Both the position numbers and the translations under genes were made by a program. Source: Chara braunii (lineage: Eukaryota > Plantae > Charophyceae). Taken from it: a stretch of 64,000 nt of DNA. Where the stretch lies: positions 781,499 through 845,498 of the forward strand of contig BFEA01000046.1 of the NCBI GenBank assembly GCA_003427395.1, given 5' to 3'. Below are positions 58,354-59,081 of this stretch, in pieces. The notes beneath the pieces were generated by a model that was given only the letters and a program-made list of their open reading frames with translations, searched no databases and was not told where the DNA came from. Numbering within the stretch: position 1 is the stretch's first letter; each line of letters begins with the position of its first letter.

Positions 58354-59081
58354 AGCTAGACCACCTAAACTTATGGAACATGTCGAGCTCAACCATTGAG
58401 TATACACAAACACAAGGCACAATAACTTTTCTCTTCTTTGGGCATATGACTAAGGCACCCTAGTCACCCTGAACTGTTTAAGTATCCAAGTTTTATATAA
58501 TTATCTTCACTTAGTCTTTTGAGCTAACATATAATTGAACCGATCATTTTTAACTCAAAATTCAGTTTGCCCCTTCGTACCACAAATTTATTCTTAATTG
58601 ATACTCTCTTCAGTTTGTGATAAGCTATAGTTAGACCACCCAAACTTATGGAACCCTGTCTGACTAGCCTGTTCATAAGTAGGATAGTAATAAAATATAG
58701 TCAAGTTATAGCTTTCTGTTTGCAGCATGTGCGTGATGTTGGACCAAGACCACCCAAACTTATGGAACATATCTTTGTCCTCAGCCTGATTCATTTCTCT
58801 TAAAACCAAAGCAGGAAGAGGCTGAGTCACCCAAACTTATGGAACATGTTCAGATCTCCTCGTTCAGAACAAAAAGAAACTGAAACAAATCCCAAAGTAA
58901 ACAAAGCGTCTAAGTCACCCAAACTTATGAAACATGCTTGATCCCTGAAAAGTCAATCATAGTCAGCCCTCACAAGTCATATCAACCAGATCACCCAAAC
59001 TTATGGAACATGTCTGGTTCTCCAGACAATTCAAAATAAACATAACATTGGGCCTCCCCAAACTTATAGACACTTGCCCAA
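58354..59081. repeat. B2 hairpin array: 7 recognisable plus 2 degenerate stem-loops with constant loop CACCCAAACTTATGGAACAT
   Basis: Units at about 58354, 58628, 58741, 58822, 58908, 58984 and 59048; remnants at about 58447 and 58533. Confidence 0.92.

Follow-up and report, generated by a model that had tools for sequence, protein, structure and literature searches.

Within one stretch of 64,000 nucleotides of the Chara braunii genome (positions 781,499-845,498 of contig BFEA01000046.1; this whole stretch is referred to here as the window), two nested retrotransposons, B1 and B2, each carry an array of hairpins whose stems and spacers correspond position by position, and whose tips are near-uniform within each element and different between the two. 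The question raised by this locus is how, and for which reader, such short tips could change together across an array while the units that carry them keep their positional identity.

Both elements are Ty3/Gypsy LTR retrotransposons of Chara braunii. All 19 Gag relatives and all 120 reverse transcriptase (RT) relatives among the matches listed carry a Chara braunii annotation, and B2 encodes gag, then protease and the start of RT within the window, i.e. the Ty3/Gypsy order, with the protease matching PF13975 (E 4e-5, under the cut-off). Relatives of the B2 RT piece, at up to 88% identity, contain RT, RNase H and integrase Pfam domains, which in one of them (P0058) follow each other in that order. 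Identity between the Gag proteins of B1 and B2 is 61%, and the closest relatives of the two differ. The parts of the two elements that bear on the array are as follows.

55345..63199, minus strand: B2 5' LTR, about 7.9 kb, holding the hairpin array; starts with TGTCGGTGCG, 3' end placed from the B1 alignment
51305..54968, minus strand: B2 gag (beginning at 54968), zinc-knuckle/protease ORF and RT start, interrupted by B1; assigned by protein and domain comparison
43199..51304, minus strand: B1 5' LTR, inserted in B2 pol inside the RT frame; start shared with B2, TGGCGCC at its end
42191..42829, minus strand: B1 gag

The element starts were recognised from TGTCGGTGCG at 63199 in B2 and the identical 20 bases at 51304 in B1. 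The B1 LTR ends near 43199 with CGCTCGACA, giving TG...CA termini, and is followed by the TGGCGCC stretch, which resembles a primer-binding site and is presumably of the tRNA-Asp type; a similar primer-site-like stretch lies behind the LTR of the neighbouring element A, and the LTR end and primer site of B2 itself are degenerate. B1 is itself split by two further LTR elements. The window covers the 5' LTR, gag and 5' pol of B1 and B2, with their 3' internal regions and 3' ends lying beyond it, and the analysis covers two phased arrays together with DNA reads from one sample.

The whole nest of LTR elements extends over 16800-63199, with B1 in the pol of B2 and element A (17327-42036; LTRs of 4.7 kb, about 93% alike; 4-bp CCGT duplication) in the gag of B1, while a further element starting at about 16800 sits in the second ORF of B1; all four nested elements start with TGTCGG. 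The LTRs of element A hold no hairpin array of the kind described here; at 18291-18552 and 38173-38528 they contain tandem units of 74-92 bases that include CTGATGAG or CTGATAAG, in copy numbers that differ between the two LTRs. Outside the nest, 63200-64000 contains the 3' end of an 18S rRNA about 500 bases from the B2 start; this rRNA piece looks decayed, and the B2 insertion site may be ITS1. Three minus-strand frames at 8035-8631, 8851-9471 and 11221-11865 have in common a repeated W-x-x-Y-x-x-C-V-D-like stretch with no Pfam match.

In both elements the array lies inside an LTR of about 7.9-8 kb, spans approximately 730 nt and consists of hairpins with tips of 19-20 nt. Its units are listed below.

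58352..59085, minus strand: B2 hairpin array, nine sites (seven with a loop, two decayed)
58362..58381, minus strand: B2 unit 1 loop, entered from a shared flank by the contigs and RNA reads counted below
58448..58468, minus strand: B2 unit 2, arms kept, loop deleted
58541..58559, minus strand: B2 unit 3, decayed, with a B1-like loop relic (11/19 identical to the B1 loop)
58637..59011, minus strand: B2 units 4-8, canonical loops at 58637, 58751, 58828, 58916 and 58992
59054..59075, minus strand: B2 unit 9, a loop variant with the same apical core
47198..47905, minus strand: B1 hairpin array, units 1-8
47932..48545, plus strand: B1 local inversion with unit 9 (48468-48486) and half of unit ten (48520-48552)

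Six loops of the B2 type were found, i.e. that at 58362 together with the five of units 4-8 (0 of 100 shuffles reached six matches), and nine of the B1 type, eight at 47208-47895 and one called on the minus strand at 48468 (0 of 100 shuffles reached nine). The other half of the tenth B1 unit lies at about 47920-47933; this unit lay between units 8 and 9, and was cut in two by an inversion of about 600 bases that also reversed unit 9 and thereby produced the only complementary loop copy in the window. That copy, at 48468, was considered as a possible master for the other loops and rejected, as it belongs to this inversion. The two arrays, whose stems and spacers the initial annotation had aligned unit by unit, differ in unit number.

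Loops cluster by element. Edit distances are 0-3 within B1 and among the six canonical B2 loops, and 6-11 between the two elements, with mean identities within the element of 91% (B1) and 93% (B2). The canonical B1 and B2 loops differ by four substitutions and three indels, and by one in length. The initial annotation had every B2 loop switched to the new sequence; this holds for six of the nine B2 sites, the remainder comprising the lost loop of unit 2, the relic of unit 3, which lies nearer the B1 loop (shuffle p 0.047, a weak result) than the B2 loop (p 0.73), and the variant of unit 9, at 5-6 edits from the B2 loop. Loop type also tracks Gag clade, a concordance with n = 2.

In contrast to the loops, spacers and stems are orthologous by position, as had been proposed. 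For nine of ten B2 spacers, the top-scoring B1 spacer is that of the same number (z 2.6-15.4), the exception being spacer 8, which scores best against spacer 7, and the matches of spacers 6 and 7 being weak; over the aligned spacer columns, 492 of 654 are identical. Arms remain paired at 7-9 sites while the spacers have diverged by 25% plus indels. At 56 orthologous stem positions, 24 are the same in B1 and B2, 21 carry single changes, many of them private, and 11 carry double changes, of which eight are Watson-Crick in both elements. Re-amplification of units is excluded by the positional orthology of the spacers, and tandem-repeat calling detected no repeat over either array.

The seven edits between the canonical loops, three of them indels, are thus common to six B2 units that have retained their positional stems and spacers. 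Independent mutation is hard to reconcile with identical indels in six units, as parallel mutation would need about 40 matching events, and copying between loops is a reasonable inference from these sequences. Stems clustering by element, or loop types mixed at random within arrays, were seen neither in B1 and B2 nor in the position-by-position reads. The divergence of the loops is about that of the spacers and no greater, so that drift under homogenisation would suffice, and neither an arms race nor the co-evolving partner raised in the initial annotation is required.

Each unit is predicted to fold, on the sense strand, into an 8-bp lower stem, an asymmetric internal loop, a 3-bp upper stem and a UAAG(A/U)Y hexaloop. 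The inner stem and hexaloop read TTC-RTCTTA-GAA in B1 and CCA-AACTTA-TGG in B2, i.e. all three inner pairs have been exchanged, and the inner stem is fully paired in seven of eight B1 loops and four of six B2 loops. The loops therefore have an inner fold in common, and not only the sequence skeleton previously recognised. Across 16 units, 76.6% of 128 stem cells are paired against 62.6% after shuffling, and both sides are altered in 33 cells, compared with 14.2 in shuffles (none of 500 shuffles scored as high, and slid controls gave 13-41%), in a test that is favoured by deriving the structure from the same 16 unit sequences. Substituting read-majority letters restored 15 of the 16 stem pairs touched and broke one, and gave 8/8 pairs in five of seven B2 units, on the basis of the best 40 of 439 variant positions for B2 and 17 of the best 40 of 171 for B1. 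Folding of the whole decayed B2 array gained modestly over shuffles (z -1.6 sense and -2.1 antisense, 20 shuffles each), and the sense strand is therefore not favoured. Stems restored to near-pure Watson-Crick pairing fit DNA hairpins or self-correction by template switching equally with RNA. The array is structurally conserved and presumably folds in RNA; the compensatory stem changes, the restoration of pairs by read-majority letters and the structure within the 'loop' are new to this analysis.

Public reads place the two arrays within a very abundant family, represented by thousands of pieces. B2 matched 10,160 and 11,346 contig pieces in two DNA runs from one sample and 1,711 and 25 reads in two RNA runs, and B1 units 1-4 matched 3,716 pieces and 503 reads. 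Among the best-supported 40 of 439 read variants for B2 and 40 of 171 for B1 units 1-4, most deviations of the B1 and B2 copies from their loop type are private, with the majority letter reverting to the loop type at 58366, 58930, 47301 and 47414; DNA joints between units, which have short sides and are probably mis-placed loops, were left out. Among the sequences that leave the shared unit 1 flank, 86 contigs and 128 RNA reads enter the B2 stem and loop, and 30 contigs enter a third stem type bearing the same B2 loop, while 31 RNA reads combine the third stem type with a loop that has the B2 inner stem but the B1 hexaloop. Loose ends at 58452, in B2 unit 2, reveal partial, short B1-like loop remnants in other copies (agreement 0.55-0.59). 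The reads thus indicate that the loop types occur throughout the family and that there are more than two stem types, probably together with intermediate loops; between the two phased copies, no partly converted array was found in phase. The proposal that the loop is a subfamily-specific barcode captures the clustering by element and is too simple for a third stem type that carries the B2 loop.

The surrounding LTR falls into two parts. Over its 5' 3.6 kb, B1 and B2 can for the most part not be aligned, and the remainder is 67-79% identical by BLAST.

59600..62600, minus strand: fast-evolving 5' part of the B2 LTR, without a conserved ORF
59152..59339, minus strand: two predicted GT-AG intron-like segments (about 116 and 55 nt) flanking a 17-nt piece, directly upstream of the array

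The first of these may be U3-like. The second has a counterpart in B1 with the same motifs and spacing (111, 17 and 56 nt); the intron-like segments are U-rich (AT 0.64-0.75 against 0.40 upstream), and a donor (B2 55534; B1 43386) and an acceptor are also conserved near the 3' end of the LTR. As these splice-like signals are conserved on the sense strand in both elements, the sequence suggests that the 3' half of the LTR could be a spliced leader. No RNA splice joint was seen in 15 of 95 joints. RNA reads on the array run in both directions (about 1:2 in run X6; 25 reads in run X5) and 64% of them continue into unlike sequence, so that the sense transcript of the array is a putative one, and these reads may include DNA carry-over.

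Further features of the LTR were noted in passing. Its last 1.3 kb (55352-56698; 43203-44527) is 79% conserved, locally about 90%, against 69% for gag DNA, and contains several hairpins and a conserved acceptor-donor pair. About 50 bases at 59340-59400 and 48150-48200, directly before the first donor-like site, are nearly identical in B1 and B2; a hairpin is possible in this stretch, at a z of only about -1, which lends it no support. Private insertions occupy 45300-46930 in B1 and 56697-57030 in B2; that in B1 contains (GATT)n and (AC)n runs, which recur in similar form at 10390-10900.

A tentatively preferred explanation, plausible on present evidence, is that an element-encoded protein, most likely Gag, recognises the array as a multivalent RNA signal, and that short-tract copying and selection probably keep the tips uniform. 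In this view the transcribed half of the LTR would contain nine or ten hairpins, each specific to its position and all ending in one small structured motif, and Gag would bind them and thereby pick genomes of its own lineage for packaging. The stem covariation, the exchanged inner pairs, the indels common to six units, the concordance with Gag clade and the flanking splice-like signals count in its favour, as do the hexaloop packaging signals of RNA viruses described below. A new loop variant would spread from unit to unit by RT template switching between co-packaged RNAs, the differing stems would keep each unit folding locally, and units without the fold would drop out of updating, as the two decayed B2 units were not updated. 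Gag is the most likely partner because a host protein would offer no grounds for divergence between sister lineages of one genome, and because the LTR was found to be without an accessory gene. The simplest account of the uniform tips is short-tract copying, most plausibly RT template switching, together with selection for one recognisable fold. Besides the mixed direction of the RNA reads, the modest folding of the whole array, the near-pure Watson-Crick stems and the extent of loop divergence, all described above, two points count against this explanation: two template switches within 20 nt are rare events, and a signal within the LTR would precede the primer site or occur at both ends, in contrast to the classical retroviral Psi.

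A further-reaching version, possible and on balance rather unlikely, is that a self-recognition code is being rewritten. Here, tips of 19-20 nt would be copied during reverse transcription from one unit or an unseen master, the array would switch identity with a changing element-encoded reader, the particles of sister lineages would become isolated, and units without the fold would be fossils of older codes.

It is unlikely, though conceivable, that the same RNA array is instead read by an accessory regulator, acting either in export of unspliced RNA (Rev/Rex/Rec-like) or in elongation (Tat/TAR-like). Conserved splice-like signals surround the array, and the position of the primer site, between the conserved donor and gag, implies that unspliced RNA must be retained. 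TAR can be likened to an array unit, with its stem, internal loop, short stem and hexaloop. Rec binds RcRE and exports intron-retaining RNA (PMC6916052). However, no splicing was visible in the joints mentioned above, and no accessory ORF is conserved between B1 and B2 in the LTR; an antisense accessory gene in the 5' LTR is unsupported, as it has no frame conserved between them. The best accessory candidate had two weak matches among 1.84 billion proteins, and its B1 counterpart had none in the Atlas.

Pairing of the loops with one nucleic-acid partner, which would dictate or overwrite their sequence and could be either a small RNA of 21-22 nt or a master copy located 3' in the element, is a decidedly unlikely alternative. 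A loop with its closing pair measures 21-22 nt, and base-pairing or templating would directly explain the near-total uniformity, indels included. Against this, the LTR, gag and 5' pol of the elements contained neither a further loop copy nor a complement exceeding 8-9 nt, which also leaves the master template suggested by the initial annotation without a candidate there, and a model search of the window returned array units only. The sole complement is that created by the inversion, the compensatory inner stem would mask part of the site, and Rfam yielded 18S rRNA alone at gathering score, its four chance-level matches lying outside the array.

Action of the array at the DNA level is improbable, whether by binding a VANC-like factor for anti-silencing or transcription, or by forming hairpins in single-stranded DNA during reverse transcription. 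Family-specific motif arrays are known in transposon non-coding DNA (PMC5735166, PMC2829016), and the location in the LTR and the almost purely Watson-Crick stems obtained with read-majority letters would fit such a role. However, a binder of double-stranded DNA needs neither complementary variable arms nor a compensatory inner stem, no candidate factor was found, and a search of the LTR for an element-encoded anti-silencing protein was negative.

It is very improbable that the array is a non-functional by-product, i.e. an old tandem repeat whose hairpins correct themselves by template switching, a process able to perfect inverted repeats in the absence of selection, and whose loops those same errors homogenise: although two of nine B2 units have decayed and yet the family amplified, the arms have stayed paired through the spacer divergence described above, a 3-bp inner stem is too short for self-correction and yet has all three pairs swapped, and unit order and spacing are kept.

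Two other readings were tried and rejected. B1 loops 1-4 lie in one open frame, but a coding array is contradicted by B2 spacings that break the frame and by the shift of one in loop length, and a comparison with 139 proteins produced one chance 5-mer match. A kissing-loop dimer was rejected with a near-palindrome, TCTTAGA, present in B1 and none in B2.

Searches beyond the window were negative for the array. Its anchor pattern occurred in no stretch of the viral contigs and none of the metagenome contigs, and none of 37 viral stretches contained an array. A protein scan recovered nine distant metagenome loci (L001-L009) at 30-37% to this type of pol, which are too short to reach the LTR and showed no array in the five checked for repeats or the nine searched with the model. 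The literature searched yielded no description of the array, though the 2018 Chara genome paper, including its supplements, could be relevant to its novelty.

Among known systems, structured RNA in or near the LTR that is read by an element-encoded protein is represented by TAR, RxRE and the GACG hairpins of MLV Psi. Such retroviral cis elements comprise one to three hairpins or one branched element, versus the array of nine units here, and no Tat- or Rec-like gene was found in the B1 or B2 LTR. RcRE is likewise a structured RNA in or next to the LTR and read by an element-encoded protein (PMC6916052).

The array is most like the repetitive structural motifs (RSMs) of coronaviruses, is placed like Sirevirus LTR motifs, resembles VANC targets in family turnover and is identical to none of them. 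In RNA viruses, repeated hairpins with lineage-specific hexaloops have been proposed, or shown, to be packaging signals, among them the gUUYCGUc hexaloops of SL5a-c and the Embecovirus packaging signal (PMC8206606). Like the RSMs, which are proposed multivalent capsid-protein sites, the array consists of repeated hairpins with one conserved, lineage-specific loop; RSMs differ in that a motif of 6-8 nt is present 2-8 times and the host is an RNA virus (PMC8206606), whereas the array has 9-10 separate hairpins with a structured tip of 19-20 nt over about 730 nt of a retrotransposon LTR, and a visible lineage-wide loop replacement.

Sirevirus LTR motifs are also family-specific, hairpin-capable and fast-evolving, with 4-14 copies per LTR over 300-500 bp, but their host is Ty1/Copia and their repeated unit is a CG-rich palindrome with a CGG-CCG core upstream of TATA (PMC2829016, PMC4728375). 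The array has neither that palindrome nor that host, being in Ty3/Gypsy elements and having an AT-rich, non-palindromic conserved tip on variable arms. The targets of VANC in VANDAL elements are family-specific motif arrays in non-coding transposon DNA that change between related families, but they belong to a DNA transposon, consist of a 9-bp double-stranded DNA motif spread by tandem repeats and have a known partner (PMC5735166). The likeness to VANC drawn initially is thus a loose one: the units here are fixed, with spacers orthologous by position in place of multiplication by tandem repeats within the family, their fold is conserved, and the LTR revealed no partner.

In the green lineage, little is understood of how LTR retrotransposons recognise their own RNA as opposed to that of relatives. 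Concerted evolution limited to about 20 nt, in units that otherwise diverge by position, is unusual, and such a tract is too short for ordinary gene conversion. The array family offers a candidate signal that is discrete, present in many copies and readable from sequence. It has two or more natural versions and frozen relics, which makes cross-binding and swap tests straightforward, and with thousands of copies in the genome the mechanism can be tested by computational means alone.
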